Below, piece by piece: positions 18,629-40,323 of a stretch of 64,000 nucleotides of DNA. The notes below the pieces were generated by a model. The model saw only the letters and a program-made list of their open reading frames with translations. It was not told the DNA's origin and ran no database searches. A program made the position numbers and the translations under genes. Where the stretch lies: the IMG/VR virus record IMGVR_UViG_3300049216_000067; one strand, given 5' to 3'. The DNA is from a virus. The first letter of the stretch is position 1, and every line of letters starts with the position of its first letter.

Positions 18629-19060
18629 TTAGTTCAATGTCCTTTTTCTAGACATGTCACTAGGTTGAATTTCAATTTCTTCATCATCTAAATCGACTTC
18701 TAAGGTCCCAATGTCTTCATCGTGTGAACCATAAAGTCCAACGAATGCTTCGGGATCGAATTCACCGGTTTCGAGATTGAAACCTGTAAAGATGACAGAG
18801 TAAGGTTCTAATTTGGCTATACATTCTTCGCACAAGAGTTCTTCACAAAAGCCTTTGAAGCCATCACCCATGAGTAGGGTGATGCCGTCTGGGCCAGTAT
18901 GAACTGCGCAAAGATTTTTTGGGTCGCGTGGGTCTTCGAGAACGATGGCTTTGGAGCGGTTTTCTTCAGGCATCCAACCCATCACTTGTGAGAGAGCTAA
19001 TGAAAGAATAAGAGTCAGGTCTTCGTGAGTCATACCTTCTTCAACTTTATTCTTCGCCAC
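18629..19060 (-). CDS. Hypothetical acidic protein
   Basis: GTG start after AGGAG. Confidence 0.65.
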   Translation of the reverse strand: MAKNKVEEGMTHEDLTLILSLALSQVMGWMPEENRSKAIVLEDPRDPKNLCAVHTGPDGITLLMGDGFKGFCEELLCEECIAKLEPYSVIFTGFNLETGEFDPEAFVGLYGSHDEDIGTLEVDLDDEEIEIQPSDMSRKRTLN

Positions 19061-19083
19061 TAGCTTCTCCTATTTGAAAAACA

Positions 19084-19410
19084 GTGGTGGGTTATTCTGT
19101 TTCCAAGAAACCCACCGAAACTCAGAGCAGAATTACGCAGCTAGTGCGAAGTCCTGTTCAAACATGTCATCGTTAGATGCATTTATAGTTTTGCACTTTC
19201 ACGGTTGTTACCTACCGGATAGCCCTTGGTGTATTACTTGCGAAGTCGATACCAGTTCAGGCCCATCAGAAAGATACTGCGACGTTAGCTCTATCACTCG
19301 GCATTAAGCTAACTGCTGCCTGATAACAGTCAGTATCTTTTTGGTGGACCTGTGGGGAGTCGAACCCCAGTGTTCCGCACCTTTAGTCAAAGGTTTACTA
19401 TCATTCAAAC
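19084..19410 (-). ncRNA. ssrA: Circularly permuted (two-piece) tmRNA, tag ASNDDMFEQDFALAA*
   Basis: The 3' piece GGGGTTCGACTCCCCACAGGTCCACCA (CCA end 19342) precedes the 5' piece GGGCCTGAACTGGTATCGAC (G1 at 19264). G3-U70 pair. 77-nt intervening hairpin. Tag ORF at 19180-19133. Confidence 0.93.
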
Positions 19411-20139
19411 TTATTTATCTACACTAGTCTTAAACTTCAGTTTCTTGTATGAAAGCAGTCTATTTCTCTTGTCTGCTCGAACAGGAGATGTGGAAAATGC
19501 CGTAAGAACTGAGCCTATGTCTGGCTCGTAGAAAGGAAATACTTCCAAACCAAGTTCCTTGCAATCCTTAATAGCAATTGCCATCTCTTCATCGTTAGCA
19601 ACACCGATCACCGCAAAATATAATTCATCGAATGCCTTCTCGGCAGCGGCCCCGTTGAATCTACCATTACCTAGACGGTGTCCCATCTTTGCAGCAGCAT
19701 GTGCTGCTTGAACAAGCTGATACTCCGGACTGATATCCTGCCTAACAAAAGTGTAAACGTAATATCTATTCAAATACTCAGACGTTCTAGTGAACGAATA
19801 CTTTATTTGAAGTGCCTTTATAATAGCATGATATTTCTCTAATTCTTCATTATTAGAAAAAATATTATCAGGATCAGTTCCAAGAATGCTGAAGCCACAA
19901 CCAAACAAGGTCCAATAGATGGTATCAAATGGTTCACGACCATTATCCAGCTTGGACTTGCGACGGATTGGAGTAAAGGCACGCCTCAAATAGACATCAG
20001 CTAATGATTCTAATGAGATACGGTGCCAGGTAGGGTCATGGTCTTTAATAGCCCTAAGAATGGCATATTGAACCATGTGGTAGCGGTCGAGTTGCTTGGT
20101 ACGAGCAAGTGTTTTGTAGATTGTTCTAAAGTCTTTCAT
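19411..20139 (-). CDS. Peptidyl-tRNA hydrolase 2 (Pth2)-like C-terminal domain protein
   Basis: YVYTFVRQDIS..QLVQAAHAA...VIGV..EE...FYEPDIG..LTA. Confidence 0.72.
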   Translation of the reverse strand: MKDFRTIYKTLARTKQLDRYHMVQYAILRAIKDHDPTWHRISLESLADVYLRRAFTPIRRKSKLDNGREPFDTIYWTLFGCGFSILGTDPDNIFSNNEELEKYHAIIKALQIKYSFTRTSEYLNRYYVYTFVRQDISPEYQLVQAAHAAAKMGHRLGNGRFNGAAAEKAFDELYFAVIGVANDEEMAIAIKDCKELGLEVFPFYEPDIGSVLTAFSTSPVRADKRNRLLSYKKLKFKTSVDK

Positions 20140-20147
20140 ATGAGTCT

Positions 20148-20193
20148 CCTAAATGTAATTGAATGATATTAAAAATCAGACAATTACACAAGG
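20148..20193 (-). promoter_or_regulatory. Anti-Shine-Dalgarno hairpin (candidate translational attenuator)
   Basis: CCU..UGUAAUUG..UGAU / AUCA..CAAUUACA..AGG pairs into the UAGGAG SD of the Pth2-like gene. Confidence 0.7.
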
Positions 20194-20253
20194 TGGTCCT
20201 CGTGCATAATGTAGGTTCTACGTGTCAGGAATCTTCTAGATCTTAGTAGCCAT
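20176..20253 (-). CDS. Leader peptide MATKI(UAG)KIPDT(UAG)NLHYARGPPCVIV, requiring amber readthrough
   Basis: ATG overlaps the upstream TAA (TAATG); TAG at codons 6 and 12; RGPP motif; TGA stop. Confidence 0.65.
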
Positions 20254-20564
20254 TATACATTTGCCTTTGCAACTACGGCTTCGATCTTAGCTTCTACTGC
20301 CTTGACTTCGGTTTTAACTTCACTAACAACATTAGCGACAGCGGCTTCAACCTTTTTGGCTTCACTCTTAACTTCGGCAACAACAGTATTTGCAACTGTT
20401 TCTACCTTAGCAACTTCAGTCTTGACAAGAGTGTAAATAGCACGACCAGCTTCATCAACCTTACCAGTGAATTCAGCTTCTTTTGGAAGATACCATTCTT
20501 CAATTTGAACTACGGCATCGCGTAGGCTGGTATCTAGAGATTTTACAAGTGTTACTAATGACAT
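20253..20564 (-). CDS. Hypothetical protein with Ala/Val/Glu/Lys amphipathic repeats
   Basis: True start ATG 20564 after AAGGA; the longer ORF-track start overlaps the tRNA. Confidence 0.75.
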   Translation of the reverse strand: MSLVTLVKSLDTSLRDAVVQIEEWYLPKEAEFTGKVDEAGRAIYTLVKTEVAKVETVANTVVAEVKSEAKKVEAAVANVVSEVKTEVKAVEAKIEAVVAKANV

Positions 20565-20580
20565 TTTTACTTCCTTAATT

Positions 20581-20657
20581 TGGTTCCCGTGACAGGAATC
20601 GAACCCGCGACGCATCGTTTTAGAGACGACCGCTCTTAGCCACTGAGCTACACGGGA
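20581..20657 (-). tRNA. Amber suppressor tRNA (anticodon CUA)
   Basis: Full cloverleaf with UCCCGUG/CACGGGA-ACCA; anticodon arm GUCGU-CUCUAAA-ACGAU; GGUUCGAUUCC T arm. Confidence 0.9.
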
Positions 20658-31469: not shown

Positions 31470-31979
31470 TTAAGGATGGGTACTGTATTGAATTCCTTGC
31501 ATTTGAGGAAGACCTGAGTTAGTGATAAACTTTTGCTTGATCTTTTCTAAGCGATCAGCCGGAACACCGTGAATAGACCCGTAATCACCCTTACACTCAA
31601 TAATGTGTACTTGATACCCATGAGTCTGCGCCAATTCAATGTAACCGCGCATAGCTCTCCAGCGAGAGTAAACACCCGCTGTAATGACGATAGGCTCTTT
31701 CATAACCATACGAAGATATACACCGTCATAACATTGATCAATAGCACGAGATAGACGTTCCTCGGTCCATTCGTATTCACCTTTCTCGTTGTATAGAAAT
31801 TGATCAGTCTCGACATAGGAGACGTGTGATTCCTCAGCCATTTTAGCTGCTAAGGTGGACTTCCCAGATCCAGGGATACCACGAATGATGTAAAAATGTT
31901 TCACAGGTTTGCGCTTAATAAACGAAGTCAAAATGAAGAACATGGTGAATGCTAAAAGCATTGAAATAAGTAAACCCAT
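31470..31979 (-). CDS. P-loop kinase (AAA_33/polynucleotide-kinase-like)
   Basis: IIRGIPGSGKST, SIHGVP; possible N-terminal TM helix. Confidence 0.8.
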   Translation of the reverse strand: MGLLISMLLAFTMFFILTSFIKRKPVKHFYIIRGIPGSGKSTLAAKMAEESHVSYVETDQFLYNEKGEYEWTEERLSRAIDQCYDGVYLRMVMKEPIVITAGVYSRWRAMRGYIELAQTHGYQVHIIECKGDYGSIHGVPADRLEKIKQKFITNSGLPQMQGIQYSTHP

Positions 31980-31988
31980 GATGTTCTC

Positions 31989-32297
31989 CTAAGCTGCTGC
32001 GTTAATTAACTTCCTTTCAATGTTGCCATTAACTACGCCCATTGTACCATTTGTAATATGAATTACAACAGCACTTCTGAAATGCAGCTTGTAGATATTG
32101 CCGTTATTTATAGGAATCGCAAAACAAATTTCAAAGCGAGTTCCGACTGTAATGGGAAAATTTGGAAGAGATAAACATGCGCCACCACCAGCACTAACGT
32201 TTAGAATGCGTCCAATAGATCGCATGTTTCCATGTCTAGCTACAACAAGAATTGAATTAGTGGTTTTACGTCGTTGGTTGTAGCGTTTTTCTATCAT
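31989..32297 (-). CDS. PilZ-domain protein
   Basis: RYNQR (RxxxR) and NVSAGG (D/NxSxxG) c-di-GMP-binding motifs. Confidence 0.75.
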   Translation of the reverse strand: MIEKRYNQRRKTTNSILVVARHGNMRSIGRILNVSAGGGACLSLPNFPITVGTRFEICFAIPINNGNIYKLHFRSAVVIHITNGTMGVVNGNIERKLINAAA

Positions 32298-32372
32298 TGG
32301 TGCTCTGTTGCAGATTCGAACTGCATTCTCTGACTTACGAAATCAGCACATCTCCTGTTATGTTTACAGAGC
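32298..32372 (-). tRNA. tRNA-Thr(CGU)
   Basis: Cloverleaf, loop UUCGUAA, CCA. Confidence 0.85.
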
Positions 32373-34704: not shown

Positions 34705-34779
34705 TGGAGTACTGGACTGGATTCGAACCAGCATGGGACTATTTTGCAGACAGCCGCGTGACCTTTCCGCCACCAGTAC
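34705..34779 (-). tRNA. tRNA-Cys(GCA)
   Basis: Loop CUGCAAA, U73. Confidence 0.88.
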
Positions 34780-34801
34780 ATTCGTAAGGAGTATAACTTT
34801 G

Positions 34802-35122
34802 TTATCGAGCTATGACAAGGTTCTTTGGAGGGACTTCAATTTTCGTCTTTCCATTGATCTTGTTGTAATGAGCTAGAATCTGATCTTCTGGCTCAGTAAT
34901 GTAGACAATCTTATCTTCAAGAATTTCAATCTCTTCTTTTGCCAAAGTTCCCCATGGAATGAAAGCAAACATGATCTGCGTCTTACCGGCTGCATCAGGT
35001 GGTCCCTGCTGTGGGATAACAAGAATCGCATCTGTAAGTGAATAACCTGTTTTTAAGGTTTGAACAGTTGCAAGTAATTCTTCACCAGTAACAAGCTTGA
35101 TTAATTTGACGCTAGATTCCAT
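34802..35122 (-). CDS. Sm-like fold conserved T4-like protein
   Basis: VKLIKLVTGEELLA...F.PW...Y. Confidence 0.75.
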   Translation of the reverse strand: MESSVKLIKLVTGEELLATVQTLKTGYSLTDAILVIPQQGPPDAAGKTQIMFAFIPWGTLAKEEIEILEDKIVYITEPEDQILAHYNKINGKTKIEVPPKNLVIAR

Positions 35123-35146
35123 GATAATTCCTTTAGGTAAAGCTTT

Positions 35147-35175
35147 ATTATACAGTATTTTTGTTTAATAAGAAA
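35147..35175 (-). promoter_or_regulatory. Promoter with TATTAA box and TATAAT -10
   Basis: TATTAA-N12-TATAAT; same arrangement at five other sites (see findings). Confidence 0.6.
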
Positions 35176-35176
35176 T

Positions 35177-35252
35177 TGGAGCGGATGAAGGGACTCGAAC
35201 CCTCGACATCTTCCTTGGCAAGGAAGCGCAATAGCCGCTATGCGACATCCGC
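35177..35252 (-). tRNA. tRNA-Gly(GCC)
   Basis: Cloverleaf, loop UUGCCAA. Confidence 0.92.
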
Positions 35253-35258
35253 GTAAAC

Positions 35259-35333
35259 TGGTGCTCCAACACAGAATCGAACTGTGACTTGGTCCTTACC
35301 AAGGACCTGTAATAACCATTTTACTATAGGAGC
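35259..35333 (-). tRNA. tRNA-Thr(GGU)
   Basis: Loop UUGGUAA. Confidence 0.9.
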
Positions 35334-35391
35334 GATACATTCAGATTATCCTTTTAATTGCGACTGTTTCCCCCCCCCCCCGCAATGGATT

Positions 35392-35465
35392 TGGTGGTCG
35401 TACTAGGAATCGAGCCTAGGTATCTTCCATGTCATAGAAGTGTTCTACCATTGAACTATACAACC
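35392..35465 (-). tRNA. tRNA-Val(GAC)
   Basis: Loop AUGACAU. Confidence 0.8.
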
Positions 35466-35473
35466 AAAACCGT

Positions 35474-35662
35474 TTAGTGAAAGCCGTGCAAATACGGCAA
35501 CAGTTGGACTACCAACCATATGACCAACGCAACGATGGCAACACCGTTTAGAATTTGCTTGAACGTTTCCTGCAAAGGAGCCTTATTGACAAGCCATAGC
35601 AAAAAACCTGCAACAAAAATCACAATCAAAATGTGGATAATGTCCACCATAAATTTCTCCAT
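35474..35662 (-). CDS. Small two-TM membrane protein
   Basis: Two hydrophobic helices joined by KAP...K.IL. Confidence 0.7.
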   Translation of the reverse strand: MEKFMVDIIHILIVIFVAGFLLWLVNKAPLQETFKQILNGVAIVALVIWLVVQLLPYLHGFH

Positions 35663-35683
35663 TGTAAATTAAACGTTCGAAAT

Positions 35684-35759
35684 TGGTCCCCTTGCCAGAA
35701 CTCGAATCTGGAATAAAACGTTCGTAGCGTTTCGTGATATCCGGTTTCACCACAAGGAG
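35684..35759 (-). tRNA. tRNA-Arg(ACG)
   Basis: Loop CUACGAA. Confidence 0.88.
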
Positions 35760-35840
35760 AGATACTGGTTACGTTTCCAGTTCATGTAGGATCATCTGGT
35801 TTGCCTAAGCCTAACAGATAAACACTCGCCATGACGATTT

Positions 35841-35913
35841 TGGTAGCGGTCGCTGGTAATGCTCCAGTTCTACAGGTTATGAGCCTGTCGTCAACTTTTT
35901 CGACTTCCCCGCT
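35841..35913 (-). tRNA. Atypical tRNA-Met(CAU), initiator-like
   Basis: AGCGGGG 5' end, loop CUCAUAA, non-canonical T loop, acceptor mismatches. Confidence 0.6.
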
Positions 35914-35932
35914 ATAATCTTTATATGATGTT

Positions 35933-36250
35933 TGGTGCTGATTTTTCGAGTAGTTGTCAAGCTACTATCTTTCTTTTTAGGTCCGGTGGGTTTATGACTT
36001 ACACATCTCCACTCTGTTGCAACAAAGTTTCGCAGATATGAGAGGAATTTTCCTCCAACGTAGTCGTCTTCTGACTGTTTATGGTCTACCAACTACGCAG
36101 CGATCACAGGCGGGTTCCGTCTTTTTCCTGTTACTTTCTGTCATTACCTTACCTAATCATACTCAAACCTTCTCGACAGCCCGTGAGAAGTACCTTCCTG
36201 CCGAAGAACGCAGTTTATCAGTCACAAAAAACCAACCCAAACATCACATT
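35933..36250 (-). ncRNA. Unidentified structured RNA of about 320 nt ending in ACCA
   Basis: At least six hairpins, long-range end pairing, no credible ORF. Confidence 0.55.
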
Positions 36251-36254
36251 AAAC

Positions 36255-36329
36255 TGGTGGTGATACTGAGAATCGAACTCAGATCTATGGCTTATGAGAC
36301 CACTGCCCTAGCCGTTGGACGATATCACC
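36255..36329 (-). tRNA. tRNA-Met/Ile2(CAU)
   Basis: Loop CUCAUAA. Confidence 0.85.
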
Positions 36330-36420
36330 GTAAATTGTTGGGACCTATCGCTGCCCGTGCGAGTATTTTACGAATAATACCATTCGTCTCTACAAACACT
36401 GACGCTCGTTGAGAAGTAAT

Positions 36421-36496
36421 TGGTGGAACTGGTAGGAGTCGAACCTACATCTCGTCCTCTTCAGGGACACGCTAAAGCCACCTCAGCTACAGTTCC
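36421..36496 (-). tRNA. tRNA-Phe(GAA)
   Basis: Loop CUGAAGA. Confidence 0.9.
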
Positions 36497-36501
36497 AAAT
36501 T

Positions 36502-36578
36502 TGGTGCCCAATGAGGGAGTCGAACCCTCAAAACCCAGCTTCTTAGACTGGTACGTATGCCAATTCCGTCAACTGGGC
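36502..36578 (-). tRNA. tRNA-Leu(AAG), short variable loop
   Basis: CCAGU-CUAAGAA-GCUGG. Confidence 0.85.
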
Positions 36579-36587
36579 AAATAAAAT

Positions 36588-36664
36588 TGGTGCGCCTGAC
36601 AGGAGTCGAACCTGCAAGATTTTGGTTCTAAGCCAAACATGTTTGCCAATTTCATCACAAGCGC
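36588..36664 (-). tRNA. tRNA-Leu(UAG), short variable loop
   Basis: UUUGG-CUUAGAA-CCAAA. Confidence 0.87.
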
Positions 36665-36670
36665 ATAATT

Positions 36671-36756
36671 TGGCGGAAAGCTGACGAATCGAACGCCACA
36701 AGTTTCCCTGCGATGTGCTTTCTAGACACTCAGAGACCCAGTCTCTATAACTTTCC
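36671..36756 (-). tRNA. tRNA-Ser(AGA)
   Basis: Loop CUAGAAA, long variable arm, G73. Confidence 0.82.
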
Positions 36757-36760
36757 AAAT

Positions 36761-36846
36761 TGGCGGAAGTGTGACGAATCGAACGCCACTAGCGAACCAG
36801 CGATCAGTTTTCAAGACTGCCCTCATCCCAGACGAGATACACTTCC
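36761..36846 (-). tRNA. tRNA-Ser(UGA)
   Basis: Loop CUUGAAA, long variable arm. Confidence 0.85.
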
Positions 36847-36851
36847 AAAAT

Positions 36852-36927
36852 TGGGGCGGCTAACGGGACTTGAACCCGTACTGACTCTTTCACAGAGAGT
36901 GGTGCTAACCATTACACTATAGTCGCC
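36852..36927 (-). tRNA. tRNA-His(GUG)
   Basis: Loop CUGUGAA, G-1/C73. Confidence 0.9.
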
Positions 36928-36933
36928 ATAAAT

Positions 36934-37007
36934 TGGATCATCCTCTAAGATTCGAACTTAGGTCACTACTTTCAGAGAGTAGGGTACTGCCGCTGTACGA
37001 AGGATGA
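36934..37007 (-). tRNA. tRNA-Gln(CUG)
   Basis: Loop CUCUGAA, U1-A72. Confidence 0.88.
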
Positions 37008-37014
37008 ATAAACT

Positions 37015-37089
37015 TGGTGTTCCTAGAGGGAATCGAACCCTCGTCGTGGGACTGAGAAACCCACATCCTAGCCTCTAGAAGATAGGAAC
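37015..37089 (-). tRNA. tRNA-Glu(CUC)
   Basis: Loop UUCUCAG. Confidence 0.85.
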
Positions 37090-37094
37090 AAATT

Positions 37095-37202
37095 TGGCCC
37101 CTCAGAATGGATTTGCACCACCTTCGTCGGCAAGGACGACGCTCTTTTAAATGATCCACCCGGACATGTGATCAAACAATCTTCTTTTGAGCTACTTCGG
37201 GA
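37095..37202 (-). ncRNA. tRNA-like RNA with greatly expanded D loop
   Basis: GCUC/GAGC D stem enclosing about 43 nt, 6-nt anticodon loop, GCCA end. Confidence 0.55.
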
Positions 37203-37250
37203 AATAAAGAAAGACATTTTGGCTCTAATTGCCTGGTGTGTTTCACTAAA

Positions 37251-37324
37251 TGGTCAGGATAGCAGGAGTTGAACCTGCGCCGCGAGCTTCCAAAACTCGA
37301 ACGCTACCGTAACGCTTTACCCTG
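37251..37324 (-). tRNA. tRNA-Pro(UGG)
   Basis: Loop UUUGGAA, C1-G72. Confidence 0.87.
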
Positions 37325-37395
37325 AGATGCGTGAATGACCTGGGTCAATCACGACTTTTGTGTCCCGCTTAGATTTGTCTAGCGGCTCGCACGTT

Positions 37396-37472
37396 TGGTG
37401 CCCAATGCGAGAGTCGAACTCGCAAAACCGAATTTTTGAGATTCGTATGTATGCCAATTCCATCAATTGGGC
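37396..37472 (-). tRNA. tRNA-Leu(CAA), short variable loop
   Basis: CGAAU-CUCAAAA-AUUCG. Confidence 0.87.
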
Positions 37473-37482
37473 GAACTTAAAT

Positions 37483-37558
37483 TGGATCACCGTGTACGAT
37501 TCGAACGTACATTTTCCTCGTTCAAAGCGAAGCGTCCTACCAATTAGACGAACAGTGA
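37483..37558 (-). tRNA. tRNA-Gln(UUG)
   Basis: Loop CUUUGAA. Confidence 0.88.
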
Positions 37559-37565
37559 ATAAACT

Positions 37566-37640
37566 TGGCGATCCCAAGGAGAATCGAACTCCTACTTTCT
37601 CTTAGACAGAGAGAAATCATAGCCATTAGATCATGGGACC
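37566..37640 (-). tRNA. tRNA-Asp(GUC)
   Basis: Loop CUGUCUA, G73. Confidence 0.88.
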
Positions 37641-37646
37641 ATAAAG

Positions 37647-37721
37647 TGGTACGTCTACACGGACTCGAACCGCGATTCTCCGCTAATCAGGCAGATGTCT
37701 TTGCCATTGGACGATAGACGC
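37647..37721 (-). tRNA. tRNA-Ile(GAU)
   Basis: Loop CUGAUUA. Confidence 0.87.
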
Positions 37722-37897
37722 ATATTAAAGTGAAAGCAATTCTCGTAGAGAATTAAATCTCTTTCCTGATTCATCAAGAAAGTAGACTTGGACAGTTTTT
37801 CCACCATCAACGACTGTGCATCGAGTGATGTGTTTACCGTCTACTACGATTGGATATTTTCTAGTGATCTGAGCCATGAGAAAATCTCCTTACTGAT

Positions 37898-37973
37898 TGG
37901 TGGGTCCTGTGGGGTATGATCCCACATCTCTGCGCTTAAAAGGCGTGACTCTTTCCATTTGAGTTAAGGACCC
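37898..37973 (-). tRNA. tRNA-Lys(UUU)
   Basis: Loop CUUUUAA. Confidence 0.87.
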
Positions 37974-37977
37974 GAAT

Positions 37978-38025
37978 TGGAGCGGCACCGACAGGTTAGT
38001 GTCGTAAGCTCTAGAACCGTGCCGC
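37978..38025 (-). ncRNA. 48-nt mini-tRNA with Gly-type acceptor stem
   Basis: GCGGCAC/GUGCCGC-UCCA plus a CGACA/UGUCG hairpin. Confidence 0.6.
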
Positions 38026-38031
38026 ATAAAG

Positions 38032-38106
38032 TGGTTGACCCTGAGAATTTCGAAATCTCGACTTTTGCCGTGTAAAGACAACGCTCTGCCTCTGAGCTAA
38101 GGGTCA
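38032..38106 (-). tRNA. tRNA-Val(UAC)
   Basis: Loop UUUACAC. Confidence 0.87.
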
Positions 38107-38112
38107 ATAAAT

Positions 38113-38188
38113 TGGTGTCCCGAACAGGAATCGAACCTGTACCTTAACGCTTAGGAGGCGTAAACATTATCCATTGTGCTACCGGGAC
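38113..38188 (-). tRNA. tRNA-Arg(CCU)
   Basis: Loop CUCCUAA. Confidence 0.88.
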
Positions 38189-38193
38189 GTAAT

Positions 38194-38276
38194 TGGCTCT
38201 CTCGGAAGGATTCGGACCTCCATCACTTACCGTTCGCGAAAACGGCAGTAAGCTCTCGATATTGAGCTACAAGAGA
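38194..38276 (-). ncRNA. tRNA-like RNA with elongated anticodon arm
   Basis: Normal acceptor, D and T arms with GCCA end; anticodon arm UUAC(UG)CCGUU-UUCGCG-AACGGUAA. Confidence 0.55.
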
Positions 38277-38283
38277 ATAAACT

Positions 38284-38367
38284 TGGTGGCTCTGATGGGA
38301 TTTGAACCGCATAGCCTTCTGGTTTGATGCTATCTAACCTGACGCTCTACTATTGAGCTACAGAACC
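38284..38367 (-). ncRNA. tRNA-like RNA with elongated anticodon arm
   Basis: GGUUCUG/CAGAGCC-ACCA and canonical D arm; anticodon arm of about 25 nt. Confidence 0.55.
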
Positions 38368-38372
38368 GAAAT

Positions 38373-38447
38373 TGGAGCGGAAGACGAGACTCGAACTCGT
38401 ATACTCTTGGTTGGAAGCCAGGGGCACAGCCTTTGTACCACATCCGC
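38373..38447 (-). tRNA. tRNA-Gly(UCC)
   Basis: Loop CUUCCAA. Confidence 0.88.
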
Positions 38448-38453
38448 ATAAAT

Positions 38454-38528
38454 TGGTACTCCGTAGGGGTGTCGATCCCCTTCCTACGCCTTGAAAGGGC
38501 GTCGATCTAGCCGGTAATCTAACAGAGC
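38454..38528 (-). tRNA. tRNA-Glu(UUC)
   Basis: Loop CUUUCAA. Confidence 0.88.
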
Positions 38529-38722
38529 ATAATCCGATATTTTAGCGTCGGCTTTAGCGCATTTTTGGGGCAGACCTAAGTCTAACCACTCCACCATCTA
38601 GTTTTTGAAAACTAGAAAATTAAAATGTGATCTACTCACCCTCTCACCATACTGAACCGAGAGAGGCTACGAAATGGTTCAGCCTGGATAGCTACTTGTA
38701 GATCTTTGCTATCGTATGATCG

Positions 38723-38798
38723 TGGTCAAGGTGGCGAGACTCGAACTCGCGATTCCATGCGCCCAAGGCATGTGGTATAGCCGCTAACCGACACCCTG
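38723..38798 (-). tRNA. tRNA-Pro(UGG), second copy
   Basis: Loop CUUGGGC. Confidence 0.87.
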
Positions 38799-38904
38799 AA
38801 AATATATTGAACCGGTTACGTCATCCGGTGTTGCTTGCGGCAACCGTAATGCCCACTCCTGCCGGGTGGTGGGCTGTCTCTACCCGCAAGATAGAGACTT
38901 TGTT

Positions 38905-38983
38905 TGGTGCCTCCAGCGGGAGTCGAACCCGCAAGTAACCCGCGTTTTAAGTGCAGTGCATATGCCAATTCTGCTACAGAGGC
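38905..38983 (-). tRNA. tRNA-Leu(UAA), short variable loop
   Basis: Loop CUUAAAA. Confidence 0.83.
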
Positions 38984-38987
38984 GATT

Positions 38988-39083
38988 TGGTAGTCCCACC
39001 AGGACTCGAACCTGGATCATGCGGTAATCTGCCGCCAAAGCCACTTTATAAGGGTGGTGTTTTAACCATTAAACTATAGGACC
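38988..39083 (-). tRNA. tRNA-Ile(UAU) with long variable arm
   Basis: Loop CUUAUAA; variable region of about 24 nt with a GCGG/CCGC stem. Confidence 0.8.
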
Positions 39084-39088
39084 GAATT

Positions 39089-39179
39089 TGGTGGTGCATC
39101 CAGGTAACGATCCTGGCTAGGCTTATTAGGCTCACCGGTTTTACAGACCGGTCCCCATCCTTAAGGGTTTTACTGCACC
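39089..39179 (-). tRNA. tRNA-Tyr(GUA)
   Basis: Loop CUGUAAA, long variable arm. Confidence 0.85.
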
Positions 39180-39186
39180 ATAATTT

Positions 39187-39261
39187 TGGACCCGCTGGCC
39201 GGATTCGAACCGACGTTCATTGAGGTAGAAGCTCAAGGCACATCCTCTATACCACAGCGAG
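39187..39261 (-). tRNA. tRNA-Arg(UCU)
   Basis: Loop CUUCUAC. Confidence 0.85.
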
Positions 39262-39593
39262 ATTATTTCTTTCTTCGTAGTGTACGATAGCGTGACAATT
39301 GGCACGCAGCACAACGCACTTCGCGATTTCTTCTTTCATCCTATGAATTGAATAGCCTTGCTTATGCATTTGGCTAATTTCAATATCTTTTTGTGATGGA
39401 TCAGAATGATGAAATTGCAATGTTGCCGGATGATTTTGTCCACATTTAGCGCACATTAAATTTTTTTGAATTCTTGAATCCATTCTTTCAATATAGATCG
39501 TCTTTCTTTGATTTTAGAGATTGCATGTTGTTGGTTCTTAGCGTACCAATCTCTACGAGATTGTCTGACTTTTTTTATATTTCTTATCGACAT
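39247..39593 (-). pseudogene. Frameshifted HNH endonuclease inserted in the tRNA array
   Basis: ATG 39593 after GGAG gives MSIRNIKK...EWIQEFKKI*. The HNH domain (CAKCG..LQFHH.DP..K...ANCH..H) continues in the -1 frame at the A7 run 39461-39467. Confidence 0.7.
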
Positions 39594-39629
39594 GACTCCA
39601 AACCTTATTTTGTTGTTTGGAGTATTTAG

Positions 39630-39706
39630 TGGCAGGTTGTGACGGTGACGATCCGCCTTTGATAGTTTTGGAGACTACGGTCTTAGCCAACGTAGACGAA
39701 CAACCC
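39630..39706 (-). tRNA. tRNA-Trp(CCA)
   Basis: Loop CUCCAAA, G73. Confidence 0.85.
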
Positions 39707-39712
39707 ATAAAT

Positions 39713-39787
39713 TGGTGCTCTCACTCGGAATCGAACTGAGTTCTCAGGCTTACAAAACCCGTGCATCGCCAACAATGCTTTGAGAGC
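39713..39787 (-). tRNA. tRNA-Thr(UGU)
   Basis: Loop UUUGUAA. Confidence 0.88.
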
Positions 39788-39827
39788 GTAACGACGGTTC
39801 TCTACTCTAGTACCGACAACACGTATT

Positions 39828-39901
39828 TGGTGGACCGTGAGAGAATCGAACTCTCAATAGTGACTTGCAAGGCCACTGTTATCCCATTTAACTAACAGCC
39901 C
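39828..39901 (-). tRNA. tRNA-Ala(UGC)
   Basis: Loop CUUGCAA, G3-U70. Confidence 0.9.
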
Positions 39902-39907
39902 AAATTT

Positions 39908-39983
39908 TGGTGGGTCCGCAGGGATTTGAACCCTGATCGTGCTCCTTAAGAGGGAGATATAATAGCCGTTATACGACAGACCC
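39908..39983 (-). tRNA. tRNA-Lys(CUU)
   Basis: Loop CUCUUAA. Confidence 0.88.
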
Positions 39984-40048
39984 GAATAAGACCATAACAA
40001 TCCGCGCCAGGGTGAAGCGTTTCTAATGTTATGGATAAAACCCTGCAA

Positions 40049-40119
40049 GATCCTTGACAGGAATTGAACCTGCTTCTCCCGATTCAAATTCGGGCGACTT
40101 ACCGTTTGTCTTCGAGGAC
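40049..40119 (-). tRNA. Degenerate tRNA with UUG anticodon (Gln-like), no encoded CCA
   Basis: CCCGA-AUUUGAA-UCGGG, GGUUCAAUUCC, one acceptor mismatch. Confidence 0.55.
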
Positions 40120-40250
40120 AGATCTTTTTTACGTGTTAGTCTCACGATCCGGACTCGGACATTAGGATTCAATAATGGAACTGTTGGCACATACGATGAC
40201 GAGTCGATGTTTAGGTTGTCAGCCTTAGTCAACAGTTCCGCGTTAATTTT

Positions 40251-40323
40251 CTCCAGCACAAGGAATCGAACCTTGCCACAAATCGTTAACAGCGATCCCG
40301 CACACCTTGCGCGTCTACTGGAA
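40251..40323 (-). tRNA. tRNA-Asn(GUU), no encoded CCA
   Basis: Loop CUGUUAA, G73. Confidence 0.78.

Follow-up and report, generated by a model that had tools for sequence, protein, structure and literature searches.

A stop-gated candidate arrest leader ahead of a Pth2-fold phage gene is probably read through by a phage suppressor tRNA

In the RAPP/RGPP arrest peptides (ApdA, ApdP and ApcA; SecM, with RAG-P; and peptides of Streptomyces lividans), a short upstream open reading frame (uORF) ends in R-[A/G]-P-P, the ribosome is expected to stall at Pro-Pro, and once stalled it melts a hairpin masking the Shine-Dalgarno (SD) sequence of the next gene (PMC10987492; PMC12992588). Arrest on RAPP and RGPP is robust, refractory to EF-P, and tolerant of varied N-terminal contexts (PMC12992588). 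In the trpL, hisL and pheL attenuators, tandem diagnostic codons in a tiny leader report the availability of one tRNA and control the downstream genes. In prfB, the gene of release factor 2 (RF2), and in tnaC, a stop codon in or ending the regulatory open reading frame (ORF) senses termination efficiency. According to the summary in PMC6412442, Liu, Qi, Yanofsky and Arkin (2011) used a UAG in the tna leader peptide to make expression depend on an amber-suppressor tRNA. The leader described here shares something with each of these. It lies on the minus strand of a 64,000-nucleotide stretch of viral DNA (IMG/VR record IMGVR_UViG_3300049216_000067), hereafter the window, downstream of a tRNA gene with anticodon CUA and directly ahead of a gene whose product is predicted to have the fold of Pth2. 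The leader is probably a translational switch whose input is the readthrough of its own stop codons by the phage suppressor tRNA. No description of a natural stop-gated arrest leader was found in the full-text literature; the search returned arrest peptides, recoded phages, and the engineered amber-gated tna leader. The parts on which the argument depends are the following.

20581-20657, minus strand: tRNA(CUA), the predicted suppressor, with an encoded 3′ CCA; first gene of the module (ARAGORN; Rfam RF00005, 60.5 bits)
20176-20253, minus strand: leader ORF, 25 codons followed by UGA (20178-20176); start ATG at 20253-20251
20236-20238, minus strand: first in-frame UAG, leader codon 6, next base A
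20218-20220, minus strand: second in-frame UAG, leader codon 12, next base A, 7 codons ahead of the first Pro codon
20191-20202, minus strand: R-G-P-P motif, CGA GGA CCA CCT; going by published systems, a stalled ribosome would be expected to hold the first Pro codon (20196-20194) in its P site and the second (20193-20191) in its A site
20142-20201, minus strand: hairpin of the minimum-free-energy fold, with a 5′ arm starting from the Pro codons and a 3′ arm holding the SD
20146-20151, minus strand: UAGGAG, SD of the Pth2-like gene, whose AGG pairs with the second Pro codon
19411-20139, minus strand: 242-residue gene, start AUG at 20139, with a helical N-domain and a Pth2-fold C-domain (AlphaFold, Foldseek, VIA-align)

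The leader reads M-A-T-K-I-UAG-K-I-P-D-T-UAG-N-L-H-Y-A-R-G-P-P-C-V-I-V-UGA, and its ATG overlaps the TAA of the preceding ORF as TAATG. An earlier note on this DNA had pointed out the uORF with its two UAGs, the RGPP and the TAATG, and all the coordinates are correct on the minus strand. The R-[A/G]-P-P core lies near the C-terminus of this small ORF, as in the published peptides. The tRNA forms a cloverleaf with an anticodon complementary to the stop codon UAG (ARAGORN, Rfam). An amino-acid assignment was attempted by aligning it with the tRNAs of relatives, and none was reached because the identity elements are ambiguous (U1-A72, A73).

Two in-frame TAGs within 25 codons would arise by chance in about 3–4% of cases, by our own estimate from window counts. 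The two-UAG leader of the window alone is therefore not significant, and the significance comes from the related loci. These were gathered from the nearest virus record (a 22-kb relative, G001), from IMG/VR and metagenome scans with protein alignment, and from contigs of close homologues. The leader set comprises 31 non-redundant loci, including several at which the gene encodes a single-domain protein. All 31 leaders have one or two in-frame stops ahead of the motif. The usual plan is a stop, x-P-D-T, a second stop, 3–4 residues, Y, A or E, and R-G-P-P. In 15 leaders the first Pro codon comes 7 codons after the last stop, and in 6 the spacing is 8 codons. In 29 of the 31 no ATG, GTG or TTG codon separates the motif from the last stop, which means that the motif is reachable only by readthrough. 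Of 53 leader stops, 46 are followed by a purine. Synonymous variation is also seen in the P-D pair that separates the two stops (CCT, CCA or CCC; GAC or GAT), which argues that translation passes the first stop.

In principle, a programmed frameshift or a hop, and not tRNA suppression, could carry ribosomes past the stops. It is established that prfB uses an in-frame stop as a regulatory recoding site, and the CCU GAY between the stops contains an out-of-frame UGA. However, the start codon, both stops and the motif share the zero frame in all leaders, and no shift is needed. A conserved slippery site with an internal SD, of the prfB type, is not found in the leaders, and the match between stop and anticodon described next would be unexplained. 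Frameshifting is therefore barely credible here.

The leader stops are matched to the neighbouring tRNA. The stops in the set are UAG and UGA, never UAA, and two-stop leaders never mix the two types. Relatives laid out like the window have a tRNA(CUA) or a tRNA(UCA) upstream of the leader. UAG leaders are accompanied by a tRNA(CUA) in the fetched flank at 19 loci. The UGA-UGA leaders are those of loci L083, L084, L087 and L092, and a tRNA(UCA) is present at L083, L087 and L092; the flank of L084 is only 404 nt. No mismatch between stop and anticodon occurs, and 9 leaders have no tRNA in the fetched flank. Fisher's exact test of stop against anticodon gives about 6e-4 (19 and 3, with 0 mismatches; our own calculation, which ignores shared ancestry). 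In a maximum-likelihood protein tree the four UGA leaders are scattered and need at least four changes, and L083 (UGA) is the sister of the UAG locus L082 with support of 97/95. The earlier note had suggested looking for co-occurrence with CUA tRNAs; the co-occurrence is there, and it extends to a change of the stop to UGA where the anticodon is UCA. This agreement of codon and anticodon makes the phage tRNA the more likely intended input.

UAG is read only by release factor 1 (RF1), UGA only by RF2, and UAA by both. The leader might therefore mainly sense the host release factor, RF1 for UAG and RF2 for UGA, so that failed termination induces a rescue module and the phage tRNA sets the baseline. 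In its favour, exactly UAG and UGA are used in the 31 leaders, and never UAA. Readthrough depends on the ratio of tRNA to release factor, so the leader responds to both, and a Pth2 fold with a transfer-messenger RNA (tmRNA) would be a sensible answer to termination failure. Nevertheless, the stop is in every case the one that the neighbouring anticodon reads, and it has switched repeatedly between closely related loci, which is not expected if the host sets the codon. We regard this explanation as unlikely. The two inputs named in the earlier note, an active suppressor or limiting RF1, are inseparable by sequence.

In L001/L002, a relative 89% identical to the window, a 33-nt in-frame insertion (2725-2758 of that relative, corresponding to window position 20243) extends the first segment to M-A-T-N-G-M-P-S-E-K-K-W-K-A-E-I-UAG, and the remainder of the leader, like the hairpin, matches that of the window exactly. 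Some other features of the set were recorded. A conserved peptide ending in D-E-Y-E-G-L stands ahead of the first leader stop in L007, L009, L093, L094 and L106; in L082–L084 D-E-Y-E-G-L ends a separate ORF just ahead of the leader AUG, and its last codons supply the leader SD. In L015/L116 (111-185) the tRNA beside a UAG-UAG leader has an irregular anticodon loop, AUUCUAAC, for which ARAGORN reports a two-base anticodon 'ct'.

The motif behind the stops is conserved as a peptide. In all two-domain loci with enough upstream sequence an R-G-P-P-type motif is found, and its first Pro codon lies 55–65 nt ahead of the gene start. RGPP is the commonest motif among the leaders; RAPP occurs in L088 and L096, HGPP in L087, L092 and L093, and RDPP in L018 and L127. 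Published work describes RGPP, RAPP, HGPP and RDPP as arrest or arrest-permissive motifs (PMC12992588; PMC10987492). A few leaders of our set have rarer motifs, namely CGPP, NDPP, and ARPP, KPP, IPP or QPP directly ahead of a stop. Across 26 leaders the Arg codon is CGA, CGT, CGG, CGC or AGA, the Gly codon GGA, GGT, GGG or GGC, and the Pro codons are drawn from all four CCN. This wobble variation with the residues held, including the change from CGN to AGA, points to selection on the motif as a peptide. In L003, L091 and L093 the leader frame has no stop after Pro-Pro and continues in frame into the gene AUG, so that without arrest a ribosome there would produce a protein with an N-terminal extension. 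One two-domain homologue (L100) lacks both a leader and a suppressor tRNA in 7.7 kb.

These codons bear on the proposal that the stops always terminate and the R-G-P-P frame is untranslated, with CCNCC acting as an anti-SD within an RNA-level element that works, for example, via reinitiation or an out-of-frame AUG. The Pro codons do double as an anti-SD. From the first UAG to the Arg codon, the window and L082 are identical in nucleotides with proteins that are only 74% identical, and an out-of-frame AUG, described below, is conserved as nucleotides. An RNA element does not, however, predict a variation with a period of three bases, including CGN to AGA and all four Gly codons. It leaves unexplained why most variants are the published arrest motifs, and equally why stop and anticodon match. 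We hold an RNA-only element to be very improbable.

The hairpin proposed in the earlier note, running from the last Pro codon into the UAGGAG, is the minimum-free-energy structure of 20205-20125 (-17.5 kcal/mol, z -2.4). The CCU of the second Pro codon (20193-20191) pairs with the AGG (20150-20148) inside UAGGAG, and GUGUAAUUG (20189-20181) pairs with CAAUUACAU (20161-20153). Further pairs are formed by UGAU with AUCA and by GAG (20201-20199) with CUC (20144-20142). Folded alone, 22 of 22 relatives take the same topology (z -2.3 to -7.5) with widely different stem sequences; in all 22 the 5′ arm begins in the Pro codons or at most 2 bases after them, and the SD is in the 3′ arm. The stems diverge too far to be aligned, so that MAFFT and RNAalifold predicted no structure for the full set of 22 hairpin regions, and a 12-sequence subset recovered only part of the structure. 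The window fold was therefore projected onto the alignment and a covariance model was built. With the projected fold, 81.6% of the cells of the 12-sequence alignment are paired, and sliding the 3′ partner lowers this to 29–50%; both sides have changed in 10 of the 18 pairs, and none of 500 shuffles did as well. In the alignment fitted to the model, which leans to the model by construction, 83.6% of cells are paired, and both sides have changed in 13 of the 18 pairs. The covariance model has one sense-strand match in the 64-kb window, besides the expected places in the relatives. By these comparisons the predicted hairpin is kept in shape, not in sequence, and covaries. The masking of the SD agrees with the RAPP/RGPP systems, and by the geometry of the sequence the stalled P site would be 45 nt upstream of the SD with the 5′ arm inside the footprint. 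The survey of homologous loci advised in the earlier note has thus found all three elements kept: the in-frame stops, the R-x-P-P-type motif, and the covarying hairpin that masks the SD.

Suppressor tRNAs of phages are known chiefly from recoded genomes, and crAss-like and other recoded phages reassign stops. It can be asked, then, whether this phage reassigns UAG (or UGA) genome-wide late in infection, in which case the leader stops would be recoded sense codons that time the gene. The window is 64 kb of about 175 kb, which leaves room for this. Yet under the standard code 62 minus-strand ORFs of at least 100 residues cover 45.7 kb intact, and 6 of them end in UAG. The earlier note had called UAG rare in the window. 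It is the least used stop, but it is not rare, as these 6 ORF ends and the trinucleotide counts of the window (TAG 747, TAA 1225, TGA 1479) show. UAG readthrough merges only one adjacent minus-strand ORF pair, equal to UGA. The pair (31472-32342, minus strand) consists of 117 residues and then 172, with one UAG between them and the junction at 31991; the 172-residue ORF has a P-loop ATPase or kinase-like match and its own AUG four codons past the UAG. It was considered as a readthrough target and rejected as two genes, since the second ORF has its own start. At the loci with UGA leaders, UGA ends 2 to 6 ordinary genes each and the standard-code coding density is 0.75–0.87, which argues that these are not code-4 phages. 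Genome-wide reassignment is highly improbable. The window appears to use the standard code, and the many genes interrupted by a reassigned stop that mark a recoded genome are not seen in it. No other ORF consisting of a start, a few codons, UAG and a long open frame was found in the 64 kb, and the leader appears to be the only recognisable target of the tRNA(CUA) there.

A second architecture places the stop inside the gene itself. At 58 non-redundant single-domain loci, which come from more distant and mostly large phages, the gene begins with M-x-stop just ahead of the conserved core (56 UAG, 2 UGA). Starts such as M-T-UAG and M-L-UAG put the stop at about codon 3 of the Pth2-like gene. A tRNA is visible at 38 of the 58 loci: it has the anticodon CUA in 36 UAG cases and UCA in the 2 UGA cases (L065 and L080). 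Four cultured phages carry this sister design:

Acinetobacter phage vB_AbaM_ME3 (L166): the Pth2-like gene starts M-T-UAG
Salmonella phage Arash (L167): start M-L-UAG; GenBank splits the gene as gp85c/gp84c
Cronobacter phage GAP32 (L168): start M-A-Q-UAG; GenBank truncates the gene as GAP32_397
Ralstonia phage RsoM2USA (L169): start M-L-UAG; the gene is unannotated in GenBank

The tRNA of Arash is annotated as tRNA-Phe, and ARAGORN reads its anticodon as CUA. In XacN1 and Stenotrophomonas phage CM1 the protein is an ungated fusion, and a tRNA is absent within 2.5 kb. Two architectures thus tie one protein family to the same tRNA, which supports suppression as the input and the Pth2-like protein as the output.

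The regulated protein has 66 homologues in metagenomes, none of them annotated. The 242-residue sequence matches no Pfam family at E up to 0.1, including PF01981, a profile search of PDB sequences found no Pth2, and PHROGs returned only an unnamed family. A DNA search of cultured-phage records with the locus matched the tRNA only. An AlphaFold model built on the homologue alignment has a pLDDT of 93. In its residues 123-234 the model resembles the Pth2 of archaea and humans (Foldseek E 3e-5 to 3e-4, TM 0.72–0.78; 2zv3, 3erj, 1q7s, 1wn2, 1xty and 1rlk), and VIA-align superposes it on PH1539 (1wn2) with Z 13.0 and an rmsd of 2.4 Å over 109 residues. Identity to Pth2 in the structural alignments is 16–24%. 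The invariant core is in the C-terminal half, and the invariant columns include Q134, Q141, Q144, H147, E205, D207, T213 and P219. Residues 1-120 are helical with no convincing structural match (VIA-align Z ≤6). The name Pth2-like given in the earlier note is accordingly borne out for the predicted fold and not by any Pfam or PDB sequence match. Its role as a peptidyl-tRNA recycling enzyme is putative.

Two neighbours complete the module:

20253-20564, minus strand: 103-residue ORF, predicted coiled-coil, TAA stop at 20255-20253
19042-19434, minus strand: permuted two-piece tmRNA (Rfam, ARAGORN), which overlaps the Pth2-like gene at that gene's 3′ end and encodes the tag ASNDDMFEQDFALAA at 19180-19133

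The order on the minus strand is tRNA(CUA), the 103-residue ORF, the leader, the hairpin with the SD, the Pth2-fold gene and the tmRNA. The 103-residue ORF was assigned to no family (only weak sub-threshold matches in Pfam, none in PHROGs), and the gene content between tRNA and leader differs among relatives. The tmRNA scores 114.5 bits with Rfam RF04321 (threshold 47) and 91.3 bits with RF01850. ARAGORN missed it at default settings, and a relaxed threshold resolves the two pieces at 19434-19042 with the same tag. In most relatives a tmRNA is located downstream of the Pth2-like gene. No promoter-like or terminator-like site was seen on the minus strand between the tRNA and the tmRNA, a weak indication that this stretch may be a single transcription unit. 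The window also has an array of 33 tRNAs covering most amino acids (34705-40323, minus strand), 14 kb from the isolated suppressor tRNA.

The leader as a readthrough switch can be pictured as follows. Ribosomes finishing the 103-residue ORF would restart at the overlapping AUG and make M-A-T-K-I. At both UAGs, RF1 and tRNA(CUA) would compete. If RF1 wins at either one, the ribosome would leave at least 25 nt before the hairpin, the SD would stay paired with the Pro codons, and the gene would be off. If the tRNA wins twice, at about the square of the suppression efficiency, ...N-L-H-Y-A-R-G-P would be made and the ribosome would arrest on R-G-P-P as on the published RAPP/RGPP peptides. The arrested ribosome, with its P site at 20196-20194, would cover about 15 nt downstream and hold the 5′ arm (20193-20181) single-stranded. 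The UAGGAG, 45 nt away, would then be freed, and other ribosomes could start at the AUG at 20139. The stalling itself, the activation of the gene by the stalled ribosome, and the recycling of peptidyl-tRNA by the product are the inferred parts of this picture.

Several points weigh against this switch. The SD ahead of the leader AUG is weak (AAGG, 10 nt upstream), and this AUG depends on the TAATG coupling. Stalling by the 20-residue nascent chain of the window leader is assumed from the motif, and N-D-P-P, as well as K-P-P, I-P-P and Q-P-P before a stop, are weaker-looking motifs whose stalling is putative. The code usage was read in only part of the phage, 64 kb of about 175 kb. The statistics across loci ignore shared ancestry, and tRNA and leader could move together by recombination. 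Readthrough also does not account for an out-of-frame AUG found 3–5 codons ahead of the Arg codon in 23 of 26 leaders. In the window it lies at 20207-20205 and opens a short ORF, M-H-E-D-H-L-V, whose UAA (20186-20184) is inside the 5′ arm of the hairpin. The leader-frame codons at this AUG read xAU Gxx: the Tyr is always UAU, with AAU instead in three leaders, and the residue after it varies (A, E, G, D or V) with its first base always G. The M-H-E-D-H-L-V ORF was examined as a selected frame and dropped, since the variable positions fall on its second codon positions. Ribosomes that are released at the second UAG might reinitiate at this AUG, and its conservation may point to a further regulatory layer.

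Many standard-code phages carry suppressor tRNAs without a known target, and one phage genome announcement is said to give an example. The stop-gated leader would be a specific and conserved target for such a tRNA. If the switch is real, it adds a new input for arrest peptides, in which access to the stalling motif is earned by stop readthrough. The joining of suppressor tRNA, Pth2-fold protein and tmRNA in one phage module points to an undescribed management of termination and ribosome rescue in large phages. We speculate that the Pth2-fold protein and the tmRNA are a module for the rescue of ribosomes and peptidyl-tRNA that is made only once stop suppression occurs. A speculative role is the rescue, together with the tmRNA, of ribosomes that read through natural stops to the ends of mRNAs; that the Pth2-like protein acts back on the stalled leader ribosome as feedback is likewise speculation. 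More generally, it is possible, though we would not call it likely, that the orphan suppressor tRNAs of standard-code phages are mainly regulators. With a stop-gated leader they would sense the decoding state, and the two stops would act as an AND gate whose response goes with about the square of the ratio of tRNA to release factor. The gate would switch on the Pth2-fold and tmRNA rescue module, the enzyme may release its own leader stall as feedback, and the logic would have evolved in two architectures and for both UAG and UGA. The complete switch takes about 120 nt and one tRNA gene, and it could serve as a compact natural reporter of suppression efficiency.

The comparison with the known systems sets the leader apart from each of them. 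The RAPP/RGPP peptides always reach their motif, and a signal such as the pulling force of Sec/YidC releases the arrest, whereas in the phage leader the signal would decide access to the motif via the in-frame stops. The phage leader has no hydrophobic segment of the kind expected of an N-terminal secretion signal or membrane segment, its output is not a protein-localisation gene such as a Sec/YidC component, and it is phage-borne. In trpL, hisL and pheL the diagnostic codons are sense codons, and scarcity of the tRNA stalls the ribosome and changes a transcription terminator. In the phage leader they are stops, scarcity would end translation, and the read-out would be translational via the arrest motif and the SD mask. 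The prfB gene needs a +1 frameshift at CUU UGA with an internal SD, and tnaC blocks RF2 at its own stop on tryptophan; neither has a dedicated suppressor tRNA or a downstream arrest motif. Pth2 (PH1539, AF2095, MJ0051 and human Bit1) shares the predicted fold of the C-terminal domain. The phage protein differs in having no sequence-family match and an extra helical N-domain of 120 residues and in being phage-encoded, and its hydrolase activity is putative. The 2011 switch, as far as its published summary describes it, is synthetic and works through the tna leader, Rho-dependent transcription termination and an orthogonal tRNA/synthetase, whereas the phage leader is natural and has two stops and an SD-masking hairpin. 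If the phage leader works as proposed here, it would be the first natural example of the design that synthetic biologists built in 2011.

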